A stretch of DNA of 64,000 bases, taken from the NCBI GenBank assembly GCA_050115675.1, contig JASFQB010000004.1, positions 7,601-71,600 of the forward strand. The letters are read 5' to 3'. Numbering within the stretch: the stretch's first letter is position 1; each line of letters begins with the position of its first letter. Position numbers and translations under genes: made by a program. Source of the DNA: Candidatus Woesebacteria bacterium. Its GTDB lineage: Bacteria > Patescibacteriota > Saccharimonadia > Saccharimonadales > EFPC-124. Shown piece by piece: positions 2,670 through 63,447 of this stretch. A model generated the notes under the pieces. That model searched no databases. It worked only from the letters and a program-made list of their open reading frames with translations, and was not told the origin of the DNA.

Positions 2670-3083
2670 ATGCCAACAATCAATCAGCTTATACGCAAGC
2701 CTCGCAAGACGGCTAAAAAACCAAGTAAATCTATTGCACTTGGGCGTATTCATAACACACTAAAAAATAAATACCTACCTATGGGCGCACCTCTAAAAAG
2801 AGGCGTTTGTTTAAAGGTCACTACGCGTACTCCACGTAAGCCAAACTCGGCTATGCGTAAGGTTGCTCGCGTTCGCCTAACAAATGGATATGAAGTTTGG
2901 GCCTACATTGGCGGCGAAGGACACAACCTCCAAGAGCACGCAGTTGTTTTGGTGCGTGGTGGACGCGTGCCCGACTTGCCAGGTGTGCGATATCATATTG
3001 TACGTGGCGCGCTTGACCTTCAGGGCGTTCAAAACCGCAAACAAGGTCGCTCTAAGTACGGCGCTAAAAAGGAGTCTAAGTAA
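2670..3083 (+). CDS. rpsL: 30S ribosomal protein S12
   Basis: [10 protein letters not shown]...[16 protein letters not shown]... classic uS12 sequence. Confidence 0.98.
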
Positions 3084-3559
3084 TGCGTAAAGTTACAAAA
3101 TCTCTACAACGCAAACTCACTCCTGATCGCAAGTATAACAGCATTTTAATTCAGCGCTTGATCAATAAAAGCATGCGTGACGGCAAAAAGCAGATAGCAG
3201 AAAATGCCGTCTACGAAGCTCTAGACATTGCCTGCAAAAAGCTAAAAAGCGATAACGCAGCAGAAGTTTTCGAAAAAGCTATCAAAAATGTTTACCCATC
3301 AGTTGAGGTTAAAAGCCGACGCGTTGGCGGCGCAAACTATCAAATTCCATTCCCAGTGCAGGGCCATAGGCAGCAGCACTTAGCGTTTATGTGGTTTGTA
3401 CAAGCTGCACGCGCACGCAAAGGCATGCCTTATGCTGAGCGTTTGGCAGCAGAAATTGTTGACGCCAACAACCAAGCTGGTGCAGCCTTCAAAAAGAAAG
3501 AAGACACTCACCGAATGGCCGAAGCAAACCGCGCATTTGCGCACTTTGCTCGAGGCTAA
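3083..3559 (+). CDS. rpsG: 30S ribosomal protein S7
   Basis: uS7-like sequence, start overlaps rpsL stop (TAATG), canonical order. Confidence 0.97.
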   Translation: MRKVTKSLQRKLTPDRKYNSILIQRLINKSMRDGKKQIAENAVYEALDIACKKLKSDNAAEVFEKAIKNVYPSVEVKSRRVGGANYQIPFPVQGHRQQHLAFMWFVQAARARKGMPYAERLAAEIVDANNQAGAAFKKKEDTHRMAEANRAFAHFARG

Positions 3560-3579
3560 TCTCAGCAAAAACTGCCACA

Positions 3580-3607
3580 AAAAGCACCCAATACTGGGTG
3601 CTTTTTG
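3580..3607 (+). terminator. Rho-independent terminator after rpsG
   Basis: Stem agcaccca/tgggtgct, loop atac, then TTTT. Confidence 0.7.
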
Positions 3608-3707
3608 TAGTTTCGTGCACATATTTTTACAAATGTATATTTACATATCGTGAAAGTCGGTTTATTGTATATAAGCCAATACGCAAAAACTGATTAGGGA
3701 GAGCAAA

Positions 3708-3833
3708 ATGGCAAACTGCAAAACACCACAGCAGTGCGTATGCAAATGCAAAGAATGCAAACCAACTGACGGCAGCACAATTGCAACACACTGCTGGGAG
3801 CACAGCCGAGGATGTCATAAAGCATGTAAATAA
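3708..3833 (+). CDS. Unannotated 41-aa cysteine/histidine-rich peptide (MANCKTPQQCVCKCKECKPTDGSTIATHCWEHSRGCHKACK)
   Basis: Hand translation; SD agggagag 6-7 nt upstream of ATG; 8 Cys + 3 His; bracketed by two terminators; below the ORF-track length cut-off. Confidence 0.6.
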   Translation: MANCKTPQQCVCKCKECKPTDGSTIATHCWEHSRGCHKACK

Positions 3834-3842
3834 GACCGGCTT

Positions 3843-3880
3843 GCCGCGCGCGTTATATTTTACGCGTGCGGCCTTTTACT
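3843..3880 (+). terminator. Rho-independent terminator after the Cys-rich micro-ORF
   Basis: 11-bp GC-rich stem (gccgcgcgcgt/acgcgtgcggc incl. one G-U) followed by CTTTT. Confidence 0.7.
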
Positions 3881-3979
3881 TAGTCGCCACTGGTAAATTA
3901 TAACTATATCTGCTACAATAAACGACAAACGTCTTTTTGCGTGTCAAAAAGAGAGACAAATAACTATAACGAGGATAAC

Positions 3980-6058
3980 ATGGCAACAATCTCCCTAAAA
4001 CAATTTCGCAACATCGGCATTATTGCCCACATCGACGCAGGTAAAACAACCACAACCGAAGGCATTTTGTACCGCACTGGCCTAAGCCACAAAATTGGCG
4101 CCGTGCACGAAGGCGAAACAACTACCGACTGGATGGAACAAGAGCGTGAACGCGGCATCACCATTACCAGTGCAGCCGTAACTTGCTTTTGGAAAGAGCA
4201 CAAAATCAACATTATCGACACCCCAGGCCACATTGACTTTACAGCCGAGGTAGAGCGTTCTTTGCGCGTTTTAGACGGCGCTGTTGTTGTATTTGACGGC
4301 AAAATGGGAGTAGAGGCCCAAACCGAAACAGTTTGGCGCCAGGCTAACAAGTATAACGTTCCTCGCGTTTGCTTCATCAACAAGATCAACCAAACCGGTG
4401 GTGATTTTTACAAATCACTAGAAAGCATTCACCACCGCCTAAGCAAGCGAGCTTTGCCCATTCACTTGCCAATTGGCTTTGAGCAAGGTGTCTGTGGTGT
4501 CGTAGACCTAGTTAGCATGAAGGCTTACACCTACAAAGAGTTTGCAGATCACGCACTTATCGAAGGCGAAATTCCTGCAGACATGCTAGAAAAAGCTAAA
4601 AACGCACGCACACTGCTTGTCGAAGCTGCTGTAGAGGCAGATGACGCATTATTTGAAAAATATCTAGAAAACGGCGAAGAATCAATTTCTGAAGGCGAAC
4701 TAAAAAGCGCACTACGTAAATCTGTGCTGTCTGGCGAATTTTACATCGTAACTGGCGGTGATGGCCGCGGCGTTATTGTAGAAAAAGTCCTAGACCTTGT
4801 TGTAGACTATCTACCAAGTCCACTTGACGTTGGTTCTGTTTGGGGTACAAATCCAAAAACTGGCGACCAAGTTGAGAGAAAGCCAGAAGATAGCGAAGCT
4901 ATGGCTGCCCTGGCATTTAAAGTTGCAACCGACCCATTTGTTGGTAAGCTTATCTTTGTTCGTGTTTACAGCGGCAAATTAAGCGCAGGTAGCTACATTT
5001 ACAACGCCACAACTGGTAACAAAGAGCGCGTTGGACGCTTGTTGCGTATGCACGCCGACAAACGCGAAGACATTACCGAAATTGGCGCAGGCGACATTGC
5101 TGCAATCGTTGGACTTAAAGACACAACAACCGGCACAACTCTTTGCGACGCAGCCAATCCTATCATACTTGAAAGCATTGACTTCCCTGAGCCACCAGTA
5201 AGCATTGCCATTGAACCAAAAACTAAAGCCGACCAAGAAAAAATGGGTATTGCCCTTCAGAGACTGGCCGAAGAAGACCCAACCTTCCGCGTACGTTCAG
5301 ATGAAGAAACCGGCCAAACAATTATTAGCGGTATGGGCGAACTTCACTTAGAAATCATTGTAGACCGCATGAAGCGAGAATTTAAAGTCGAAGCCAACAT
5401 TGGACAGCCCCAGGTTGCCTATCGAGAAGCAATTAAAAAGCAAGTCGAAATCGAAGGCAAATACATTAAGCAATCTGGTGGTCGCGGTCAATACGGTCAC
5501 GTATGGTTGCGAATTGAGCCAAACGAAACTGGCAAAGGCTTTGAATTCTTTGACGAAATCAAAGGCGGCGTTGTTCCTCAAGAATATCGCAACCCTGTTA
5601 AAAACGGTATCGAAGAGACACTTAAAAACGGTGTCATGGCTGGATACCCAGTAGTTGACGTAAAAGCAACTCTTTACGACGGTAGCTATCACGATGTTGA
5701 CTCAAGCGAAATGGCCTTTAAAATGGCCGGTGCGCTTGCAGCCAAAGAGGGCGTTAAAAAGGCTGCCCCAGTTTTGCTTGAACCAGTAATGAAGGTTGTG
5801 GTTGTGACTCCAGAGGAATTCATGGGTGATGTAATTGGCGGCCTAAATAGCAAACGCGGCCGCATTGAAAGCATGGAGGATTTAGCTGGTGGAACCAAAG
5901 AAATTACTGCGATGGTGCCATTGGCAGAGATGTTTGGCTACACAACAACTCTACGAAGCTCAACTCAAGGCCGAGCAAGCTCAAGTATGGAACTGGCCCA
6001 GTACGAGGAAGTTCCACCAAACGTAGCCGAAGCTGTTATTGCAAAACGCGCTGCCTAA
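3980..6058 (+). CDS. fusA: Elongation factor G
   Basis: [18 protein letters not shown]-domain, full EF-G length (692 aa from ATG 3980, SD gagga upstream; ORF-track start 3941 probably too early). Confidence 0.97.
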
Positions 6059-32513: not shown

Positions 32514-33236
32514 TCATTTAACTTCCGCCTTGTCCGCCTGAAGCGTTAGGGCGGTACCACTGCTTGATTTATCGCCAGGCTTTGACTCAGGCGGCGAACT
32601 ACCTGCTGACGCTTTATCTAAAAGTTGCCGCCCGACTACCGCAGCAGGCAAAAAGCCACCTTGCACCAAGAAGCTAGCTGCAATTTTTTCGTTAAAAGAC
32701 AGGGCAAGCATAATTACAAGATCAGCAATCCACCACCCAAAAGGAACATTAGAGGGAAAAACATTTTGAGCCGCTACATCACCAAGTGATGCGCGCGTAA
32801 AACCACCACAATCTGCAAGAGTATCGAGCAACATAACACCAATTACAGCAACGGCTGGCAAGAGCTTAAGAGCATAGTCTACAAAAGAAACGCAATCCGA
32901 CCGTTTGATATAGAATATACCATCTTTTCCTTTGTAAATGTTTGCCCAAAACGAAATTTGTACACCAGATGTAATAACTGACATCGAGATGCTTGCAATC
33001 ACATTAACGCTTAGCACAAACAAACCAAGATCGTATGCTGGCAGAAACTTGAACCACAACGAGTAGAATGTCGCACCAAAAGAAATATCAATTAGAGCAA
33101 GAGATAAAATGGCCACAATGTAAATTGAACTGTTAAAGATTCTCCAAACTAGAGTCACCAGTCTCACTTCCCATCCGTCAGTATCAGTTTGGCTGTGATC
33201 TTTTGACACAACGCCTCCCGACATAGCATTACGCAA
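32514..33236 (-). CDS. Membrane protein (240 aa, ~5-6 TM, Ser/Pro-rich C-terminus), hypothetical
   Basis: Hydrophobic segments; no motif recognised. Confidence 0.65.
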   Translation of the reverse strand: MRNAMSGGVVSKDHSQTDTDGWEVRLVTLVWRIFNSSIYIVAILSLALIDISFGATFYSLWFKFLPAYDLGLFVLSVNVIASISMSVITSGVQISFWANIYKGKDGIFYIKRSDCVSFVDYALKLLPAVAVIGVMLLDTLADCGGFTRASLGDVAAQNVFPSNVPFGWWIADLVIMLALSFNEKIAASFLVQGGFLPAAVVGRQLLDKASAGSSPPESKPGDKSSSGTALTLQADKAEVK

Positions 33237-33306
33237 GAAACAAGACCCATACAGGCCCTAATGGATAGGCAAACAATAACACACAATAACAAGCCAAACA
33301 ACATAT

Positions 33307-33335
33307 TTGACTTTAGATTATGCACGATCTAAACT
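33307..33335 (+). promoter_or_regulatory. Candidate promoter for the leader transcript
   Basis: TTGACT-17 nt-TAAACT; predicted start ~33342, i.e. at the leader ATG (leaderless). Confidence 0.35.
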
Positions 33336-33342
33336 AACAGGT

Positions 33343-33460
33343 ATGCGAACATTTAGACAGGCTTTTTATTTTTGGTTTACCGCGCACCATTAGGGCGGTT
33401 TGTTTGCGTATAAAAAATAATTATTTAAAAAGATCGCCCAAAAAGGCGATCTTTTTAAAT
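33343..33460 (+). promoter_or_regulatory. Candidate transcription attenuator: 16-aa aromatic leader peptide (MRTFRQAFYFWFTAHH) plus alternative hairpins and a 16-bp terminator
   Basis: Leader ORF 33343-33393. Segments: 1 accgc (33379-83), 2 gggcggttt (33393-401), 3 aagatcgccc (33430-39), 4 ggcgatcttttt (33445-56). 1:2, 2:3 and 3:4 pairings are mutually exclusive. Confidence 0.4.
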
Positions 33461-33483
33461 TAAGTGTACAAAAGGAGAAACTT

Positions 33484-34734
33484 ATGACACAATTACTTGA
33501 AACGGTAGGAGAGAGACAAGTGGACAGAGTTGACGCTATTTTTGAAAGCGCAAGACGTCGCGAAAAGGAGATGCTTGAAAACGCGCAAAAATCAGAATTA
33601 ACTGCGGCCGAAATGCGCCTAATGCTACACGAATGCCTTCAGCAAAATCCAGAAGCCCTTAATGCAATCCATAAGTCCAGGCGCGAGATAGCCGCTGTGC
33701 AGCTTGGGTTAAGCAATAAGGGCGTTTTTATTTCTGGACAGTGCTCTCCTGACATGCGCCCGCTAGAAGATGGACGTTACCCTGCATACGAGGTTCCCCA
33801 CGCGTTACACGAAAACGCACAAAGACACGTTGACTCTTTAGTACATATACCTCGCGTATGCTGGAAGAAGCCACGAAGCAGTGCGGGACCAGCAGGACTA
33901 TATCACGAGCAGGGCGGAGCAACCTTTGCATTGCGCGAGGTTTATCTACCACTGGTACAAGCTGGGGTGCCATTTGCCTACGAATTTTTAGACCCAAATG
34001 ACCCTCTTCAAGATTGCGCAAGCTACGCATGGTTGGGTGCACGTAGCGTAGGTCACAATGCGCTTTGGTATCCGCTTTCTGCAAATGCAACATGCCCGGC
34101 TGGATTAAAAAATGGTGAGGCTGGCAGATTTCATAAAGTTGACGATGCAGCAAATGCTATTCGTAGCCGAACAACTGTCCAGGCTGCACTACCGGGATAC
34201 GAAGCCACCATCATAACAAGTGGCAACAGCTTCGTAAACTCCATATATCGCGGAGGAGAACTAGTAAAGCTCGGGCTGGAGGATCCAGGCGAAATTCGCG
34301 AAGCCTTTCAGCAGGGATACAAGGATTTCTGCCGAACATCTTATAAACATCATATGCGCGTAATGTTAGACATATCCCACGGAAATGCTAAGTTATTTAC
34401 GCGAGGCGCACGAGACGAACGTGGGCAGTTAGATTGCTTCGACGCTTTTGAAGACCTCTTGCAGCAAAATCCTACAATAGTTAGATACGGCGAAATGAAT
34501 GCGCCACGCGATATTACGGTAAAAGACGTGACTATGGGAGCCATGGCTGAGGTAAGCTGGCTGCCTGGAAGAAACAACGCAGAAGAAGGCGTCATTGCAG
34601 GACGCAGCGATGTTGACGCCTGCCTGGGATTAGGCCAGGGGATTGACTTACAAAAGCGCATGGCCGAGCTGTTTGATGACGGCAAAAATGACATACCACT
34701 ATGGATAGATCACCCAGCCTTCCAGGAGGTGTAA
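33484..34734 (+). CDS. 3-deoxy-7-phosphoheptulonate (DAHP) synthase homolog, type I-alpha-like, divergent
   Basis: Aligned by eye to my recollection of E. coli AroG: GQCS (GPCS, Cys61), PRV...KKPRS (R92/K97/R99), EFLDP...WLGARS, GLKNGEAG, RGG, LDISHGN (His268), GAMAEVSWLPG (Glu302), SDVDACLG (Asp326). Confidence 0.7.
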   Translation: MTQLLETVGERQVDRVDAIFESARRREKEMLENAQKSELTAAEMRLMLHECLQQNPEALNAIHKSRREIAAVQLGLSNKGVFISGQCSPDMRPLEDGRYPAYEVPHALHENAQRHVDSLVHIPRVCWKKPRSSAGPAGLYHEQGGATFALREVYLPLVQAGVPFAYEFLDPNDPLQDCASYAWLGARSVGHNALWYPLSANATCPAGLKNGEAGRFHKVDDAANAIRSRTTVQAALPGYEATIITSGNSFVNSIYRGGELVKLGLEDPGEIREAFQQGYKDFCRTSYKHHMRVMLDISHGNAKLFTRGARDERGQLDCFDAFEDLLQQNPTIVRYGEMNAPRDITVKDVTMGAMAEVSWLPGRNNAEEGVIAGRSDVDACLGLGQGIDLQKRMAELFDDGKNDIPLWIDHPAFQEV

Positions 34735-34785
34735 TATCGCCAATGACTCGTCATATAATCACAAAAATTGTATACTAGGAATAAC

Positions 34786-35835
34786 ATGCAACAAGAGAGA
34801 GTATTAACAGGCATTCGCTCTAACGGCGAGCCTCACATAGGAAATTATCTGGGCGCTATGCTGCCTATGATAGAAATTCAAAAACGACATGAGCAAAGCA
34901 AAGAGATGTTCTTTTTTGTACCCGATTTGCACTCGTTTACAACGCCAGTAGACCACACCACACTTTATCAACATACTGTACGCAATCTTAAATATTACGT
35001 AGCCGCGGGCATGGATTTTTGGGCTGAGGGCACATTTTTGTATCGACAAAGCTATATATCTGCACACAGCGAATTAACCTGGATTTTAAACTGTTTTGCC
35101 TATTTTGGCGAGTTAGGACGAATGACCCAGTTTAAAGACAAATCCGCTAACGAGGAGCGCAACGTGTCTGTTGGGCTGTTCGACTACCCAGTCTTAATGG
35201 CCGCAGACATTTTGCTTTATAACGCCAGATACATACCTGTTGGCGAAGACCAGCGTCAGCATCTAGAGATTACTCGAGATCTTGGTATTAGGATTAACAA
35301 CAAATTTGAAGACGTCTTTTCTGACGGAGTTTTTAAAGTTATACCAGAAAACTGGGACAAGCAGCTTGAGTTTTCTCAGCGCGACAGGGGAGTGCGAATT
35401 AGAAGTCTGCGAAATCCAGAAAAAAAGATGAGCAAATCTGTCAGTGACCCTGCTGGCACAATTGGATTGCTTGACGATCCAAAAGATGCAGCTAAAAAAA
35501 TTATGTCTGCAACAACCGACAGTGTAGGCTCAATAAATTACGACTGGCAAGCTCAACCTGGTATTTCTAATTTGATTCAAATTTTAGCACTTTTAACAGG
35601 CAAACCTGTACACGAAATTGCAGCCAAGTGGCAAGGAAATCAGCGCTATGGAGACCTAAAACAAGCTACTGCGCAAGAGGTAGAAAGGCTTTTGACTGAT
35701 TTTCAATCTAAAACCAACAGCATCAACGAAACTAAATTAATTGCAAAACTCGAAGAAGACGAAGCCAAAGTTAACCAAATAGCAAAAGCAACATTACTGC
35801 GCGTACAGCAAGCAGTAGGATTAAGACCTCGTTAA
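34786..35835 (+). CDS. trpS: Tryptophan--tRNA ligase
   Basis: GEPHIGNYLGA (HIGH-type), VGEDQRQHLEITRD, KMSKS; ~349 aa from ATG 34786. Confidence 0.9.
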   Translation: MQQERVLTGIRSNGEPHIGNYLGAMLPMIEIQKRHEQSKEMFFFVPDLHSFTTPVDHTTLYQHTVRNLKYYVAAGMDFWAEGTFLYRQSYISAHSELTWILNCFAYFGELGRMTQFKDKSANEERNVSVGLFDYPVLMAADILLYNARYIPVGEDQRQHLEITRDLGIRINNKFEDVFSDGVFKVIPENWDKQLEFSQRDRGVRIRSLRNPEKKMSKSVSDPAGTIGLLDDPKDAAKKIMSATTDSVGSINYDWQAQPGISNLIQILALLTGKPVHEIAAKWQGNQRYGDLKQATAQEVERLLTDFQSKTNSINETKLIAKLEEDEAKVNQIAKATLLRVQQAVGLRPR

Positions 35836-38831: not shown

Positions 38832-38907
38832 GCCGACATAGCTCAGTGGCCAGAGCGGCTGTTTTGTAAACAGCGGGTCGTGGGTTCAAATCCCTCTGTC
38901 GGCTCCA
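38832..38907 (+). tRNA. tRNA-Thr (anticodon TGT), CCA encoded
   Basis: Manual cloverleaf: acceptor gccgaca/tgtcggc, anticodon loop ttTGTaa, T-loop ttcaaat (one U-U in the T-stem). Confidence 0.9.
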
Positions 38908-38911
38908 GTTT

Positions 38912-38997
38912 GCTGGGATAGCGAAGTGGTCAAACGCATCTGACTGTAAATCAGACGACATTAGTCTTCGGGGGTTCGACTCCCTCTCCCAGCACCA
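38912..38997 (+). tRNA. tRNA-Tyr (anticodon GTA), long variable arm, CCA encoded
   Basis: Acceptor gctggga/tcccagc, anticodon loop ctGTAaa, 15-nt variable arm, T-loop ttcgact. Confidence 0.9.
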
Positions 38998-39005
38998 GTA
39001 CAAAC

Positions 39006-39035
39006 ACCAGCATTAAGCTGGTTTTTGTATTTTTT
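39006..39035 (+). terminator. Terminator after the tRNA pair
   Basis: accagc/gctggt hairpin followed by TTTTTGTATTTTTT. Confidence 0.7.
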
Positions 39036-39084
39036 AGACATTTTACATAAAAAATAAGGCTCAAAGGCCATATTTACATAATTT

Positions 39085-39159
39085 TGGAGCCTCGACCGAG
39101 ACTTGAACTCGGGACCCCTTCCTTACCATGAAAGTGCTCTACCGCTGAGCTATCGAGGC
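39085..39159 (-). tRNA. tRNA-Thr (anticodon GGT), CCA encoded
   Basis: Reverse complement folds: acceptor gcctcga/tcgaggc, anticodon loop atGGTaa, T-loop ttcaagt. Confidence 0.9.
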
Positions 39160-40076: not shown

Positions 40077-40742
40077 TCATTTCTGATATGAACGTTTTTT
40101 ATCAAGTTCGTCAGCAAGCCATACACCGACTCTTAGCATCTCCTGCAAATTCTTTACAGTTATGGACATGTTTGTGGCATATATAATTAAGGTGTCATCA
40201 TCGATTTCGTAATCAAATTGCTTAAAATGATGCGCCAGCATTGCGGTTATTTCAGGACTAATCATTGAACGCACCTTGTTTATGTCACTTTGATTTGCCA
40301 AGATCTTAAAATATTTTAAAAATTGCGGATCATCCTGCAAAAAACTACCATATAAATTTTCGTGCTTACTATATTTGGCAAAAAAATCATAATAAAACGA
40401 TTTTTCATGGTGATTTGCGTCTAAAAATACATGTGGCAGCCCCTTGCTTTTAAGATCAATCTGCATAATTTGCCATTTGTAGTTTTTTGATTGCCCAGGC
40501 AAAAAGTTTAGCGTATTTTGACGCTCGACCACAACAACATCGCGCCCCCTAAAGCTACCCATGGCACAATAGTCGTCTTTATGACTTACACTAAGCGTGA
40601 CGCCACGAACAACCCATTGGTCGCTTTCATGTTGATTTATTTTGCCAAAATACACAAATTTAAATTTTGAGGCAAATTGTTTTATCGCCCTTTTTGCAGC
40701 AACATCTTGTACTGTCGAAATTTTACTTTTTAGTATGTTCAT
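40077..40742 (-). CDS. Hypothetical protein (221 aa), last gene of the glycogen operon
   Basis: ORF overlapping the GH15 3' end by 20 nt (start ATG 40742); no motif recognised. Confidence 0.6.
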   Translation of the reverse strand: MNILKSKISTVQDVAAKRAIKQFASKFKFVYFGKINQHESDQWVVRGVTLSVSHKDDYCAMGSFRGRDVVVVERQNTLNFLPGQSKNYKWQIMQIDLKSKGLPHVFLDANHHEKSFYYDFFAKYSKHENLYGSFLQDDPQFLKYFKILANQSDINKVRSMISPEITAMLAHHFKQFDYEIDDDTLIIYATNMSITVKNLQEMLRVGVWLADELDKKRSYQK

Positions 40743-42723
40743 GTGGCTCCGCTTGTTCAATTGACTCAAATGGATCTGAAGCCAAATCTATTACCGAGTT
40801 TACAAACTCGGCCTGACTCCACGCCAGTGGAGCAACCGACGAAAATGCTTGAGTTTGAGAATTTATTTGTTCAGACAAGACTCCGCTCTCCAACATATTA
40901 TCCTTTACCCAGTTTATTATACGCCTAGCTTGCGGCGCTCGACCAGTCTCTATGTAGTATTGCGCCATCCAAAGAGTGGTTACAAACCAAGGGTTGCCCA
41001 GGCTGCTAGGGTCGGTACGGTTATAGCTATCATATTCGTAACGGGGAATAGAAAAGGCGGTCTTATCGTTAAAACCAAAAGTTCGTTCTAAGGTTAGATA
41101 AGACTGTTCAACTTCGTCTGACCCTACATCGAACAGACCAAACATAAACGCTCCATAAAAGCTTGATACGTCAACGGTTTCATCATATTTTATATTTGCG
41201 TGGCCCTCTTTGTCTTTTGTCCGCAAAAAACCTTTATAAAAGAACTGCTTATCTCTATTAAATAGCATATTGCGTGCGGAGTGCTGGATATCGTCCGCTA
41301 CAACTTGCCAGCGCAAAAACTCTTGCTGGCGCCCCATAACCTCGGCCAAACGTGCACTAGCCAACAGAGCTGCATGGACTACGGCAGTCGTATATGTTGT
41401 AGTTAATAGCTTTTCTTCCCACAAATCGTAAGAGGCGCGCGGTAACTTGGTTATGTCATCAATATAACTAGCCAAAAAGTTTGCAGCTGGCCTAACTAGC
41501 GAGTCATAAAACTCTTGTAGCATTTGATCATCTTTTGTCGCCTCGTAGTACTGGCCAAGCAAAAATAGTACAATGGCTGTTTCGTCCTCTTGTATTGGAG
41601 GAATAACGCGCCCTGCCGCACAATAGGGATGCCAACTGCTTCCAAGCGTGCCATCTGACATGTATTTATGCATCAAATAGCCCTCTGGCTGCAAAGCGTG
41701 TCTACAAAAGTATAAAAAGTTTTTTACTTCTTCGTAGTAGCCCATGCGCAATAACGGCCACAAAACAAACGCTGCATCGCGCGGCCAACAATAGGCATAG
41801 GCATCGCGCGAGTAGTTTAACATTGTAGTATCTACAGCAGCTATAACAGCGCCACGCTTATCTATATGAGCTTTAATAATAAGCAAACTATCAATCAGCG
41901 GGTTTGCAAACTCTTTGTCTACATGATACAAATAGTTTTTTGCAGGCTTTAGCCAATCATGCCAGTAAGTGGCAGTTTTTAACATTCGTTTATGTATGCC
42001 TTCTATGCGAATTCTTCTAAAAATATGCAGGGCCTCGCGATGCTCTAAACCCGCGGACACCCAATAGGTTAACCGTTTTGATTCGTGAGCTTCTATAAAC
42101 AAGTTAAAACCCATCACCGAATCAACGCTGCCGTGCTCTACAGGATTGCCGCTCAAAACACCATCCTCAGCATCTTTATACGTACCTTCTTTGCCCTCAA
42201 TAGCGTAAACTCCAACAGAGTACTGATCAAAAGGCTCACCCTCAGATGTTTGCGCCCCAAAAACAAATGCGCGACTACCTTTATAGTGCAAAATTGCGTT
42301 GTCTAGCGGTAAATATTGCGCAGTGTCACCATTAAGACTGTTGCTAATGCGCATAACTTGATGCAAAAATATACGAATTTCGCGTGGGGTATCCCATTCG
42401 TTTACTACGTGAATGTTTTGAATAAAGGCGTTAAAATCCGCATCCACACAATTTTGCAGCTGCACCAAAACTCCAAGACGATCGTTGCGCGCAGTAACTT
42501 CGCCAATTAAAGCGTCGCGTTCGTATTTTATTTTAAATGACCAATTACCGTCATCTAGCCAGCTAAATCCATTTGCTGTCCAAACGCCAATTTTCCACCT
42601 CATATGACCTGCTGCTGCATGGTTTTCTAGACCAACATAAGGATAGTAAAAGTCATGAATTTCGCCATAAAGATTAATACCCACATTTAACGAACCATTG
42701 CTTAAAATTAGTGGACGAGTCAT
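40723..42723 (-). CDS. Glycoside hydrolase family 15 (glucoamylase/glucodextranase-like)
   Basis: AYAYCWPRDAAFVLWPL and (alpha/alpha)6-type C-terminal region typical of GH15. Confidence 0.8.
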   Translation of the reverse strand: MTRPLILSNGSLNVGINLYGEIHDFYYPYVGLENHAAAGHMRWKIGVWTANGFSWLDDGNWSFKIKYERDALIGEVTARNDRLGVLVQLQNCVDADFNAFIQNIHVVNEWDTPREIRIFLHQVMRISNSLNGDTAQYLPLDNAILHYKGSRAFVFGAQTSEGEPFDQYSVGVYAIEGKEGTYKDAEDGVLSGNPVEHGSVDSVMGFNLFIEAHESKRLTYWVSAGLEHREALHIFRRIRIEGIHKRMLKTATYWHDWLKPAKNYLYHVDKEFANPLIDSLLIIKAHIDKRGAVIAAVDTTMLNYSRDAYAYCWPRDAAFVLWPLLRMGYYEEVKNFLYFCRHALQPEGYLMHKYMSDGTLGSSWHPYCAAGRVIPPIQEDETAIVLFLLGQYYEATKDDQMLQEFYDSLVRPAANFLASYIDDITKLPRASYDLWEEKLLTTTYTTAVVHAALLASARLAEVMGRQQEFLRWQVVADDIQHSARNMLFNRDKQFFYKGFLRTKDKEGHANIKYDETVDVSSFYGAFMFGLFDVGSDEVEQSYLTLERTFGFNDKTAFSIPRYEYDSYNRTDPSSLGNPWFVTTLWMAQYYIETGRAPQARRIINWVKDNMLESGVLSEQINSQTQAFSSVAPLAWSQAEFVNSVIDLASDPFESIEQAEPHEHTKK

Positions 42724-43937
42724 TTACTGCGCTCCTTGTGCGCGTCTAAAATCCGCAGTTTTAAATCTCTAAGCACATTCATATAATTTACAAAACCATC
42801 ATAAGGCGAGTCGTACGGGCTAAAATAGGCATGTACATCACCATCCGTAAACCACTTAGTGCACATATAGTAAAAATGATCAGAGGTTTGCAACTTGCGC
42901 CAGTCATTAATTATCGTATTGTCGCCACTGGTAAGTACAATTTCTTCTAAATTATACAAGCTATTTATAGCTTGCTGTTGCATTGTGTTGCCCAACCAGG
43001 CCGTTAAATCACGCTCAGCGTCTGCCCAGGTAATTGTTTGAGGCGCGTCTATTTGCCCCTTTGGCTCAAATTTATCTATTGCCTCACTTGGAGTTACAAA
43101 CATATTGCCGTTAAATTTACCAAATTCTGCTGGCAGAGCAGTTAAAAAGTCAAATATTCCATGCTCTTTCCACTGATGCTCGCCAAACGTTTCGTAGTCC
43201 ATAAACAAATTTACCAATTGTTGGTCAGAAGGAAGGGCATTTAGCCAATGTGTAAATTTTTTGACTGTTAGTGGCCACTCAGCCCAGCTGCGGTCAGAGA
43301 ACCTAAACGCAATATCATCCGAAAGTTTATAATTTTTGAGTAACAATCTGATATTTTTAGTATTAATAGGACGATATACATGGTTTGGGCTTTGCTGATT
43401 TAGAATCCTATCCCAACCTTCAGCTACAATCCCCTTATACCCAGCTTGATCAGCCCAGGCGGCAACATCGTTGTTATACGCAAGCTCGGTATTTCTAAAC
43501 ACAACAGGTACAATTCCAAAAATGTCTTGAATTTTTTGGTGATGCATGTGCACTTGCTTTTCAAACTCAAACATAGAGTAAAAAAACGCCAAGCTGTGAT
43601 AGTAAGTCTCGGCCAAAATCTCTACTCGCCCTGTGGCCACTAAACGCTTAAAACTATCTAGTGTTTGAGGTGACCAAGCTTCAAGTTGGTCCAATAAAGT
43701 GCCCGTAATAGATAGTGCTAACTTAAATTCTGGATGATCTTTAAGAAGTTTTAGCAAACATTCATTGGTCTTAAGGTAAGATTTGTGCGCAACCTTTTGC
43801 AGAACATCATAGTTTATATCGTGCCCGTCTTTAACCATGGCAAAGTAATTGCTGTTTTTTCCTGCATCAAAAACACTATAGCCTGCCACTCTGTAGGGCT
43901 GATGCGCGTGCAAGTAAAGGCAAATGGAGCGACTCAT
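42720..43937 (-). CDS. Glycoside hydrolase family 57 (alpha-amylase/branching-enzyme-like)
   Basis: N-terminal LYLHAHQPYR and MDYETFGEHQW (nucleophile Glu region) GH57 signatures. Confidence 0.8.
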   Translation of the reverse strand: MSRSICLYLHAHQPYRVAGYSVFDAGKNSNYFAMVKDGHDINYDVLQKVAHKSYLKTNECLLKLLKDHPEFKLALSITGTLLDQLEAWSPQTLDSFKRLVATGRVEILAETYYHSLAFFYSMFEFEKQVHMHHQKIQDIFGIVPVVFRNTELAYNNDVAAWADQAGYKGIVAEGWDRILNQQSPNHVYRPINTKNIRLLLKNYKLSDDIAFRFSDRSWAEWPLTVKKFTHWLNALPSDQQLVNLFMDYETFGEHQWKEHGIFDFLTALPAEFGKFNGNMFVTPSEAIDKFEPKGQIDAPQTITWADAERDLTAWLGNTMQQQAINSLYNLEEIVLTSGDNTIINDWRKLQTSDHFYYMCTKWFTDGDVHAYFSPYDSPYDGFVNYMNVLRDLKLRILDAHKERSK

Positions 43938-45160
43938 ACGCGAACCTCTTTTGCAGTAGTTTTTGAATATAAACCACCAATTTTTTGCGCAACATCACGC
44001 CATGACATGTTCTTAAATTCGGCATGCGATTTAGTGAGCAGTTCGTGATGTAGACTAGGGTAATAGGTTGCCGCAAGTATATAATCGGCCATTTTTTGCG
44101 TATCCCAGTAGTCAAACTTTAAAACATTTTTTAGCACCTCACCAACACCCGATTGCTTAGAAATTAAAGCTGGAGTGCCACAACCAATTGCCTCTAGTGC
44201 TGCAATGCCAAAAGGCTCCGAAACAGACGGCATTACAAACACGTCACCAATAGCAAAAGCATCTCGCCACTTTTTCCCGCGCACAAATTGCCCTGTAAAA
44301 ATAACATTTTGACTAATGCCCAAATCTGCGCTAAGCTGCAACAGCTCGTGATATTGTTCGCCACTGCCAGCAATTAAAAACAGTATTTTAGAATTTTTTT
44401 GTATAACCAATTTTGCAGCCATTAGTAATTGAGTCAGACCTTTTTGCACAGCAAGCCTGCCAACATTTACCACGACTTTGTAGCCATACTGCTTCATTTT
44501 GCTTAAATACACATAAACATTATCACCGTCAATTGGGTTAAAACTTTCAGCATCTATGCTATTATGGACAACCTCAACTTTATTTGACGGAATTTGATAA
44601 TTACTTGCAATAATATCTTTTGTAGATTGACTTACCGCAATAACGCGATCTGCCATCATTAAAGTATTGTATTCAATATCATGAATTAACGGATTGCCCG
44701 AATGTCCGCCAGCACGATCAAACTCGGTAGCATGAACATGTGCAATTAGTGGCTTTTGACTAAGTTTTTTAGCACATGCAGCCGCCTCGAATGTTAGCCA
44801 ATCATGCGCATGAATAGCGTCGTAATTACTTTTTTTAACAATTTTGCTTACAGCTTTAGTATATCCAGACTGTAAATTGCGAAGCTCAGACATATGCGCA
44901 GATATATTGCCGATTTTAGGTGGCTCAAGTTTAGTATTATATACATTTTCGAGGCCACTTCTGCAAAGCTGCCCATGCGCGCAGGACAATGCAGGGACGA
45001 CATTCATAAAATCTATTTGATTGTGATCATCTTGATATGGAACTACAAAATCAATTTCGACACCACGCGTCGACAAGGCCTTGCAAAGTTCAAAGCAGGC
45101 AACGCCCAAACCTCCGGTATTATAAGGTGGCAGTTCCCACCCAAGCATTAAAATCTTCAT
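43934..45160 (-). CDS. Glycogen-synthase-like glycosyltransferase (GT-B, GT4/GT5)
   Basis: MKILMLGWELPPYNTGGLGVA N-terminus; C-terminal E..G....EA motif (PSVSEPFGIAALEA). Confidence 0.8.
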   Translation of the reverse strand: MKILMLGWELPPYNTGGLGVACFELCKALSTRGVEIDFVVPYQDDHNQIDFMNVVPALSCAHGQLCRSGLENVYNTKLEPPKIGNISAHMSELRNLQSGYTKAVSKIVKKSNYDAIHAHDWLTFEAAACAKKLSQKPLIAHVHATEFDRAGGHSGNPLIHDIEYNTLMMADRVIAVSQSTKDIIASNYQIPSNKVEVVHNSIDAESFNPIDGDNVYVYLSKMKQYGYKVVVNVGRLAVQKGLTQLLMAAKLVIQKNSKILFLIAGSGEQYHELLQLSADLGISQNVIFTGQFVRGKKWRDAFAIGDVFVMPSVSEPFGIAALEAIGCGTPALISKQSGVGEVLKNVLKFDYWDTQKMADYILAATYYPSLHHELLTKSHAEFKNMSWRDVAQKIGGLYSKTTAKEVRV

Positions 45161-62253: not shown

Positions 62254-63447
62254 ATGGAGCCTTTGCGGCCTGACGACCCTAAGCAAATTGGACACTTCGC
62301 GACTGTTCGCGTGCTTGGCCAAGGCGGAATGGGTCGTGTGTATCTTGGTATATACAGCGAGGGTAATGGTCAGCATTATGCAGCCGTCAAGGTTATGTCA
62401 AGCAAGTACACATCAGATCTAAGTTTTGTTAAACGGTTTCAGCGCGAAATTCGTGCAGCGCAAAAGGTTCAAGGCTATTTTACTGCTAATGTTCTCTGTA
62501 GCGGAGTAGACGGCAAAACCATGTGGTTTGCCAGCGAGTATATTCCCGGAAAGACTCTTGCCGAAGCAATCTGTCAGTCAAATTTTGACAATGATTCGCT
62601 GATTAAACTGGCGTGGAGTCTGTACTATGCAATAGTTGCAATTCACAACCAGGGCATTGTACATCGCGATCTTAAGCCTCAAAATATCATTTTAAGCAAG
62701 CATGGCCTTCGAGTAATTGACTTTGGCGTAGCTTACATTTCAGACGAGTCAACGATTACCGCAACAGGGTTGCTACTAGGAACGCCGCACTACATGGCGC
62801 CAGAACAAATTGCCGGAGAAAAGCCAGCAGCACCATGGGATATTTTTGCCTTTGGATGTATCTTGACTTACGCAGCCACTGGACACCATGCCTTTGGAGA
62901 TAATGTAAGCTCGGCTTTTACCGTTTGCAATGCTGTCACAAACTTAGAGCCAAATCTTGACAATGTGCCTGATTCGGTTCGCACGCTAGTCGAAAAATGC
63001 CTCAACAAAGACCCAAGCAAGCGCGCAACACTAGAAGACATCAGAAGAATGCTGCCAGATGTACCACATTCGGCGATTACTGGATCAGACTGGCTTCCAC
63101 AAACCATTGGCGAAGGGGTAGCCGAGGTCACTCGCGTGATGCCTGCAGCAAGAGACATTAAGCGTGTCATTCTTGCTCAGCCCAAAAGTCAGCCGCAGCC
63201 AGAACAGCCCAAGGTAGATAGGGCCAGTCAGCCTAGCCAAAAAAGATCGAGATCATTTTCTGACGTATTGCAAATTATTCTAATTATCACCGTAATTGTT
63301 CTTGTCCTTATGCTGGCTAATCAGTATGGATTGCTTGACCGCAAAGCCAACAACGACCCACAACCTAGCCCAAGCACAACGAGTCAATCGTTTGCACCTC
63401 ACACAAAAGGCGACGAACATCACGCCACTGTCCATACTGTTGTTTGA
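62254..63447 (+). CDS. Hanks-type Ser/Thr protein kinase with C-terminal TM helix
   Basis: GQGGMGRVY, AVKV, VHRDLKPQNIIL, DFG, HYMAPE; TM IILIITVIVLVLML. Confidence 0.92.
   Translation: MEPLRPDDPKQIGHFATVRVLGQGGMGRVYLGIYSEGNGQHYAAVKVMSSKYTSDLSFVKRFQREIRAAQKVQGYFTANVLCSGVDGKTMWFASEYIPGKTLAEAICQSNFDNDSLIKLAWSLYYAIVAIHNQGIVHRDLKPQNIILSKHGLRVIDFGVAYISDESTITATGLLLGTPHYMAPEQIAGEKPAAPWDIFAFGCILTYAATGHHAFGDNVSSAFTVCNAVTNLEPNLDNVPDSVRTLVEKCLNKDPSKRATLEDIRRMLPDVPHSAITGSDWLPQTIGEGVAEVTRVMPAARDIKRVILAQPKSQPQPEQPKVDRASQPSQKRSRSFSDVLQIILIITVIVLVLMLANQYGLLDRKANNDPQPSPSTTSQSFAPHTKGDEHHATVHTVV

Follow-up and report, generated by a model that had tools for sequence, protein, structure and literature searches.

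We analyzed a window of 64,000 nucleotides (64 kb; the window is the whole stretch of DNA studied here, and all coordinates are positions in it unless a related locus is named) from a metagenome-assembled genome of Candidatus Woesebacteria, a member of the Patescibacteria or candidate phyla radiation (CPR). An identical protein on record from a Candidatus Woesebacteria genome places the window in the Patescibacteria/Microgenomates group. The subject is a short leader directly upstream of a gene for a divergent protein resembling DAHP synthase (DAHPS), which is followed by trpS. On its other side the leader faces a divergent open reading frame (ORF) of 240 aa, beyond which lie rpsI and then ribosomal-protein and rpoA genes; trpS is followed by genes for an RluA-type pseudouridine synthase, holB and a TPR protein. 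The leader carries a promoter, a 16-codon ORF with a run of five aromatic codons, and a hairpin placed just before the Shine-Dalgarno sequence (SD) of the DAHPS-like gene (Table 1). It had originally been predicted to be an attenuator responding to aromatic amino acids, and a direct read reproduces the positions then given for the promoter, the ORF, the F-Y-F-W-F codons, the pairings and the hairpin. Because the leader is conserved in related lineages, we consider it very probable that the element is a ribosome-dependent (leader-peptide) transcription attenuator sensing aromatic aminoacyl-tRNAs.

Table 1. Features of the leader and its operon in the window.
Feature	Position	Strand	Details and basis
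Divergent ORF upstream of the leader	32514-33236	minus	240 aa; no Pfam or NCBIfam match
Sigma-70-like promoter TTGACT-17-TAAACT	33307-33335	+	TTGACT 33307-12, 17-nt spacer, TAAACT 33330-35, then 7 nt to the leader ATG at 33343; direct read, consensus scan
Leader ORF, MRTFRQAFYFWFTAHH and stop	33343-33393 (stop 33391-93)	+	16 codons plus TAG: ATG CGA ACA TTT AGA CAG GCT TTT TAT TTT TGG TTT ACC GCG CAC CAT TAG; direct read; homologous ORF in 12 other lineages
Segment 1, 5' arm of long-range helix P1	33343-33351	+	includes the start codon; partner 33401-33409; minimum free energy (MFE) structures
Regulatory codon run TTT TAT TTT TGG TTT (Phe-Tyr-Phe-Trp-Phe)	33364-33378	+	proposed ribosome stall site
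accgc, 5' arm of small inner hairpin	33379-33383	+	pairs with gcggt 33395-99; directly 3' of the aromatic codons
Segment 2, switch strand, GGCGGTTTGTT	33394-33404	+	near-invariant in 13 leaders
Whole terminator/attenuator hairpin	33423-33460	+	perfect 16 bp, arms 33423-38 and 33445-60, loop CAAAAA, TTTTT run inside the hairpin; -19.5 kcal/mol
Segment 3, terminator 5' arm	33426-33439	+	partner is segment 2 or segment 4
Segment 4 with T-run (GGCGATCTTTTTA)	33445-33457	+	3' arm of intrinsic terminator
Shine-Dalgarno sequence AAGGAG of first structural gene	33472-33477	+	about 15 nt past the T-run
Regulated gene 1, divergent DAHP-synthase-like protein	33484-34734	+	416 aa; Pfam DAHP_synth_1
Regulated gene 2, tryptophan--tRNA ligase (trpS)	34768-35835	+	TIGR00233 trpS, 281 bits; predicted to be co-transcribed with gene 1

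No source annotation calls the leader ORF as a gene. Its codon run is rare in its surroundings: among 547 ATG-started ORFs of 8-40 aa in the six frames of the window, three contain an aromatic run of at least four, and a run of five is found only in the leader ORF. Downstream of these codons, gggcggttt (33393-401) is complementary to aagatcgccc (33430-39) over 9 bp, two of them G-U, with 3-4 further A-U pairs; this is the 2:3 helix, which competes for segment 3 with the 3:4 stem of the terminator. The whole leader folds at -41.2 kcal/mol (z = -5.5, 0/200 shuffles), most of this energy being supplied by the terminator. Consensus scans also detect the promoter and the hairpin, the latter entered on the minus strand because it is palindromic and carries both an A-run and a T-run. 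The only other exact match to the segment 2 motif in the window sits inside the BipA gene and was rejected as a second copy of the element.

Comparison with related loci carries most of the argument. We examined the contigs encoding every reachable relative of the DAHPS-like protein (individual loci are given L numbers). Relatives 58-90% identical to the window protein are found in L001, L002 and L005-L012; a second clade, 23% identical (L015, L018, L019, L020 and L022), was reached by a degenerate leader DNA pattern followed by a protein search; and a third, 37% identical, is represented by L021. The DNA pattern scan returned one true leader, that of L015, while its hits L014, L016 and L017 are chance matches within coding sequence. 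A protein scan of genome contigs gave L012 as the sole true relative, L013 being set aside as an unrelated Bacillota DAHPS (26% identical), and a protein-based scan of metagenome contigs gave no relative. With the window included, these loci provide 13 distinct leaders, each directly upstream of a DAHPS-like gene, whose proteins are 23-90% identical.

Contigs long enough to show neighbors share the synteny (rpsI)...DAHPS-like-trpS-rluA-holB. The upstream neighbor of the leader varies, being a divergent membrane gene, PsiE, an RsmB-type methyltransferase, or rpsI with its own terminator, and the leader accompanies the DAHPS-like gene regardless of it. We accordingly rejected the hairpin as the terminator of an upstream gene: as had been pointed out for the window, the gene upstream is divergent and needs none, and where rpsI takes that place it brings its own.

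Promoter geometry is equally regular. In all 12 leaders having upstream sequence, a -35/-10 pair is present with its -10 box ending 6-10 nt before the leader ATG, and in none of them does an SD precede this ATG; the DAHPS-like genes themselves have strong SDs. This geometry and the lack of an SD support the reading of a leaderless mRNA that had been proposed for the window, and the accompanying reservation that the promoter call was weak loses its ground, comparable boxes being present in every one of the 12 lineages.

The leader ATG is invariant and the frame from it to the aromatic run is open in 13/13 leaders. The run itself reads FYFWF, FNYWF, FYTWF, FYYWF, FFYWF, NFYWF or YFFYWF, so that each leader holds four to six aromatic codons with at least one each for Phe, Tyr and Trp. 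Across the 13 leaders Trp-Phe is invariant, the order of F and Y permutes, and synonymous changes between TTT and TTC and between TAT and TAC occur; the remaining peptide sequence differs between clades. Amino-acid content, and neither the peptide nor the exact RNA sequence, is therefore what is conserved, which is a signature of sensor codons. The position of the stop codon is more variable than the original prediction implied: it falls between the aromatic codons and segment 2 in the window and L001 only, and in L002 and ten distant lineages the ORF reads through segment 2.

Segment 2 is near-invariant in the 13 leaders, and its start is always 19-21 nt past the Trp codon. Two leaders have it outside the ORF, as non-coding sequence, and in the others it is read as RFV, AVC or GGLF, in three frames; invariance under these circumstances points to a constraint at the RNA level. 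All 13 leaders also have the terminator, a GC hairpin with a T-run, and the SD of the DAHPS-like gene follows it after 15-30 nt.

Pairing was scored on a fixed-register concatenation of the four segments (A3), used because in some rows of the raw MAFFT alignments (A2, A4) the 3' arm of the terminator is out of register. We chose the registers ourselves, anchoring them on GGCGG, CGCC and the G of TTTGTT, and this alignment is biased towards the proposed structure. In it the 3:4 stem is 86% paired with 8 double-change cells and a covariation score of 0.207 vs 0.147 (0/500 shuffles), and the 2:3 helix is 83% paired, compared with 32-56% in slid registers. All tolerated substitutions in 2:3 preserve a wobble pair (C to U opposite G, A to G opposite U) and segment 4 compensates for the same changes, the pattern to be expected where one strand must suit two partners. 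In four leaders, a C of segment 3 can pair in 2:3 but makes a mismatch in the terminator.

Since segment 2 hardly varies, a column-shuffle control is uninformative for 2:3, and this helix was tested instead by the slid registers and by RNAduplex against dinucleotide shuffles. RNAduplex finds segment 2 to be the best upstream partner of the terminator 5' arm in 13/13 leaders. In 10 of the 13, at most 2/300 shuffles pair as well; the window gives -14.2 kcal/mol (z = -2.7, 5/300 shuffles). RNAalifold on the raw MAFFT alignment likewise returns 2:3 as the consensus helix. The expectation that the element would be conserved is thus borne out, with aromatic codons, terminator and 2:3 pairing kept in 12 other lineages.

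A further conserved helix, the proposed anti-antiterminator P1, joins TTTGTT of segment 2 to a stretch early in the ORF that contains AAC(A). When the leaders are folded with the terminator region left off, the MFE structures show the C of AAC(A) paired to the G of TTTGTT, in one register, in 13/13 cases, and P1 is 74% paired vs 30-53% when slid; one clear series of exchanges runs A-U, G-U, G-C in L008, L012 and L011. The 1:2 helix first proposed, accgc:gcggt, stands as an inner hairpin of the window's own subclade (window, L001 and L002). By inspection it is weak or absent elsewhere, the longer P1 being the conserved form.

In L012, segment 3 contains an exact 11-nt reverse complement of segment 2 (AACAAACCGCC; 2857-2867 and 2908-2918), and since the terminator stem has 8 bp, this antiterminator pairing exceeds what the terminator needs. 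In L021 (~1540-1563) the terminator U-run is broken by a C (GGCGGTTTCTT), which restores a G-C pair with a G of the A-rich 5' flank, a hint that selection acts on the A-run/U-run pairing of these hairpins as well.

A covariance model built from 10 distant leaders only, excluding the window's own subclade, matches the window at 33343-33457 with 60 bits (E ~3e-14 by a rough calibration) over model positions 1-130 of 130; the next match in the window reaches 20 bits. The same model scores L001 at 57.6 bits and L002 at 49.3 bits and finds no match in the leader-less L003. In Rfam at the gathering threshold, three tRNAs alone are found in the 64-kb window and nothing in 13 related loci. The best sub-threshold scores go to Phe_leader (RF01859; 28.7 bits vs a threshold of 55), Thr_leader (RF00506; 24.5 vs 55) and Trp_leader (RF00513; 20.8 vs 41), all leader-peptide attenuators, with no T-box or riboswitch among them, an outcome in favor of the original prediction. 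These matches are consistent with a shared architecture and not with membership of those families. For the T-box (RF00230) there is no gathering-level match in the window or the 13 loci, and it is absent from the matches at E<=10 for 33100-33600.

Folding was performed on complete leaders and on transcripts cut before segment 4, with a 28-nt mask for the ribosome. At full length, the MFE structure consists of P1 and the terminator in 11/13 leaders. In transcripts cut before segment 4 with the ribosome masked on the aromatic codons, 2:3 forms in 13/13; a ribosome placed at the stop codon abolishes 2:3 in five (window, L001, L002, L005 and L011). The predicted alternative structures therefore do form in silico, and in this model the geometry of the stall footprint fits a disruption of P1 in most clades.

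From these elements, their conservation and their pairing potential, we infer a start site, ribosome stalling, termination and an amino-acid response as follows. Transcription would start at or next to A33343, as the conserved promoter geometry suggests, with the RNA beginning at the AUG of the 16-codon ORF, and a ribosome would load on this 5'-terminal AUG and trail the polymerase. With charged aromatic tRNAs plentiful, the ribosome would reach the UAG (33391-93) and cover segment 2 (GGCGGUUUGUU, 33394-404); in the longer-ORF relatives it would translate through segment 2 instead. With segment 2 covered, segment 3 (33426-38) would pair with segment 4 (33445-57), and transcription would stop at about 33457-60 to leave an RNA of ~115 nt.

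A ribosome stalled on F-Y-F-W-F (33364-78) would instead cover the strands that otherwise hold segment 2, namely accgc (33379-83) and an alternative AGACAGGCU (33355-63) in the window, and in other clades a AACAAACCG stretch immediately preceding the codons. Segment 2, lying just beyond the footprint, would then pair with the newly made segment 3 (-14 kcal/mol in the window), no terminator would form, and the polymerase would read through into the operon. Without translation, P1 (33343-51:33401-09) together with the inner hairpin would sequester segment 2 and allow the terminator to form. The predicted outcome is that a shortage of charged Phe-, Tyr- or Trp-tRNA raises expression of the DAHPS-like gene and probably also of trpS next to it. 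The cargo suits such a response, being a DAHPS-like protein with catalytic motifs and TrpRS. Control would be transcriptional, because the terminator lies ~15 nt before an exposed SD.

Several observations weigh against this attenuator, or at least against parts of its mechanism. Regarding the pairings, the near-invariance of segment 2 leaves 2:3 without two-sided covariation, and covariation in P1 is weak (4 pairs with double changes, a level reached by 35/500 shuffles). In the window, the U-run comprises just 5 U and is base-paired to the A-run of the hairpin. TGGTT is able to pair with an upstream AACC (RNAalifold on the MAFFT alignment), so that part of the conservation of the Trp-Phe codons may have a structural cause. 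Regarding the switch, the full-length MFE structure is the antiterminator form in 2/13 leaders (L018 and L020), and a ribosome at the stop codon leaves the core of segment 2 unmasked in 8/13, all with long ORFs; for these two reasons, the off state must be kinetically set. In the window, a ribosome stalled at the Trp codon would not reach back to the P1 5' arm (33343-51), its footprint including only the 5-bp accgc:gcggt hairpin, and as modeled the off-to-on switch of the window would rely on this 5-bp hairpin and on steric exclusion.

The genomic setting adds to these points. In the L003/L004 lineage, whose protein is 68% identical, the leader is missing and the operon follows immediately on the rpsI terminator. 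Among 20 ORFs at 37.5-64 kb of the window, none is a further shikimate or aromatic-pathway gene, and CPR genomes are generally poor in amino-acid biosynthesis.

Other explanations account for parts of the evidence. In a translation-independent RNA switch (a riboswitch, or a T-box-like or TRAP-like element), TGGTT and GGCGGTTTGTT would be binding or structural elements and the ORF incidental. Conservation of TGGTTYACC and GGCGGTTTGTT at the RNA level would suit such a switch, as would the possible TGGTT-AACC pair and the T-box regulation of trpS in Firmicutes. We nevertheless judge it very unlikely, given that, tRNAs apart, neither the window nor the 13 loci give a gathering-level match to any Rfam family, T-box or riboswitch, that the leader has only ~115 nt, and that its ATG is invariant, its frame open in all 13 leaders and its codons subject to synonymous change. 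The promoter geometry with no SD is that of a leaderless mRNA, and a codon order that permutes while amino-acid content is kept is unlike a binding site. A chance arrangement, in which a T-rich spacer yields aromatic codons beside an ordinary bidirectional terminator, was a caveat of the original prediction itself: Phe codons come easily in T-rich sequence, 3 of the 547 small ORFs have an aromatic run of at least four, and the hairpin also scans as a minus-strand terminator. Recurrence of the arrangement in 13 lineages at 23-90% protein identity, and the 60-bit match of a covariance model made independently of the window, dispose of this caveat; moreover, the divergent upstream gene needs no terminator here and the same-strand rpsI has a separate one. 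Chance is, on these comparisons, effectively refuted.

The ORF and hairpin could also constitute an independent unit, either a small gene for a hydrophobic micro-protein or a trans-acting RNA of ~115 nt with its own terminator, the DAHPS-like gene being expressed from elsewhere. The ORF is indeed conserved and always followed by a strong terminator, its C-terminal AVCSVRLH stretch is conserved within one clade, and trans functions have been reported both for RNAs derived from attenuators and for leader peptides, as with rnTrpL/peTrpL of S. meliloti. An independent unit is nonetheless highly improbable, since the element stays with the DAHPS-like gene irrespective of its upstream neighbor, and only ~15-30 nt separate the T-run from the SD in the 13 loci. 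This distance is too short to hold another promoter, and we rejected a promoter at this place for that reason. Across clades only the aromatic codons of the ORF are conserved, segment 2 being read in three frames, and a plain terminator leaves a conserved segment 2 that is complementary to its 5' arm unexplained. A trans role may exist in addition to attenuation in cis.

The attenuator appears from its sequence to form a new family within a well-known class of regulators, with a textbook mechanism. T-box leaders of trpS and aromatic genes in Firmicutes sense uncharged tRNA(Trp) through a terminator/antiterminator switch. They are functional analogues upstream of trpS, but the CPR leader is far too short for a T-box, would be ORF-dependent and has neither specifier loop nor T-box motif. 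With E. coli trpL (RF00513) it shares the 1:2, 2:3 and 3:4 design with a U-run, the Trp sensor and, in the window, a stop just before segment 2. It differs in having one Trp codon instead of two, in the added Phe and Tyr codons, in a leaderless instead of an SD-led ORF, and in its cargo, which is the DAHPS-like gene and trpS and not trpEDCBA. In most CPR relatives, furthermore, the ORF extends across segment 2, and segment 1 precedes the regulatory codons.

The closest precedent, by analogy, is aroR-aroF of C. glutamicum, an attenuator reportedly described by Neshat et al. in 2014. In this system, a leader peptide with Phe-Tyr-Phe, aroR, lies upstream of aroF, which encodes DAHP synthase, and stalling is described as raising transcription of the operon (PMC11802643; first noted in PMC4046766). 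The likeness concerns features as described in these accounts: both leaders have a mixed run of aromatic codons in a short ORF directly upstream of a DAHP synthase gene, so that one regulatory logic would govern the entry enzyme of one pathway in both. As far as the same accounts go, aroR belongs to an actinobacterium, has no Trp codon and has no trpS reported in its operon, whereas the CPR run always contains Trp then Phe.

Attenuated synthetase operons are known as well, E. coli pheST being controlled by leader-peptide attenuation (PMC11802643). Its leader pheM and that of pheA (pheL, RF01859) resemble the CPR element in their runs of Phe codons, and pheST also in being a synthetase operon. 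These leaders are gamma-proteobacterial and use Phe only; the CPR synthetase is TrpRS and comes second in the operon. Leaderless sensing has a parallel in mycobacteria, where Cys-responsive short ORFs on leaderless mRNAs starting with AUG remodel the downstream RNA when ribosomes stall at cognate codons (10.1101/834739). The mycobacterial ORFs sense Cys and unmask a ribosome-binding site, acting on translation, and the CPR element differs in carrying an intrinsic terminator.

The first gene of the operon is predicted to be a very divergent member of DAHP_synth_1 and not a canonical DAHPS. Its original assignment as DAHPS is right at the level of this Pfam family (38.4 bits, above the cut-off of 25.5), and goes too far at that of the NCBIfam equivalog aroFGH, where it scores 74.9 bits, under the cut-off of 173.2. 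In alignments, the window protein is ~30% identical to solved type I-alpha DAHP synthases and retains their catalytic motifs: the C of GPCS, KPR(T/S), GAR, KNG, RGG, xSH(A/G)N, the acidic residue in MVE/MAE, and DAC(I/L)G. The family is tiny, with 2 clusters at E<1e-30 among 1.84e9 representative proteins. Its clades diverge fast, being 23-37% identical to one another, yet occupy the same syntenic slot beside trpS.

Adjacency of the DAHPS-like gene and trpS is kept in all loci long enough to show the downstream gene, except in L021. The gap between the two genes measures 5-8 nt in L018 and L019 and ~52 nt in the window, where the true trpS start is probably the ATG at 34787 behind an AGGA, and not the mechanically listed TTG at 34768. 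This window spacer (34735-34786) contains a perfect TATAAT at 34754-59 with a poor -35, and a weak internal promoter may serve trpS in the window lineage. In L021, three extra genes lie between the DAHPS-like gene and trpS (2952-5934), encoding a 47-aa protein, a 237-aa protein with no Pfam match and an Asp/Glu-racemase-family protein; the TrpRS of this locus has 476 aa and a C-terminal tRNA_bind domain.

We note further irregularities in individual loci. The minus-strand DAHPS-like ORF of L015 has an in-frame TAG at codon 268 (~370-372 on the + strand of the locus), inside the xLDxxHG motif, which is likely a sequencing error because the contig name states a coverage of 2. In L003 (1423-1567) and L004 (1424-1568) the called protein is 26 aa shorter, the homologous N-terminal region ahead of the called ATG being without a canonical in-frame start codon, and the 3' arm of their rpsI terminator (GGGGCTATTTGTTCGC) is faintly like segment 2.

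CPR bacteria are uncultivated and have tiny genomes, and to our knowledge almost no gene regulation has been described for them. We found no literature linking CPR or Patescibacteria to leader peptides or attenuators, or Woesebacteria to shikimate. Whether the element is the first leader-peptide cis-regulatory family described for the CPR, in which one leaderless mini-ORF reads all three aromatic tRNAs and gates a lineage-restricted DAHPS-like enzyme together with TrpRS, seems to us an evenly balanced question. If it is such a family, transcription-translation coupling would operate in these ultra-small cells, CPR cells would monitor their aromatic amino-acid supply, and the entry step of the shikimate pathway would be retained or repurposed in a group regarded as largely auxotrophic. 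The leader indicates, at the sequence level, that ribosomes trail RNA polymerase closely enough to control termination. It also offers a handle on the nutrients that may be sensed (Phe, Tyr and Trp) and a functional clue to an orphan, fast-evolving family of DAHPS-like proteins. A new covariance model from 13 seed sequences, absent from Rfam, could serve for the annotation of CPR genomes.

Elsewhere in the window, a terminator-like hairpin (8 pairs, then TTTCTTGCGT) is found on the minus strand at 33241-33260, immediately ahead of the divergent 240-aa gene, and could be a 5' leader structure of that gene. Three tRNA genes lie at 38832-39159 (two on the plus and one on the minus strand). Further downstream follow a glycogen/starch-type cluster on the minus strand (40723-45160), with GH15, GH57 and GT4/GT5 starch-synthase-like genes, and a Ser/Thr protein kinase gene at 62254-63447.

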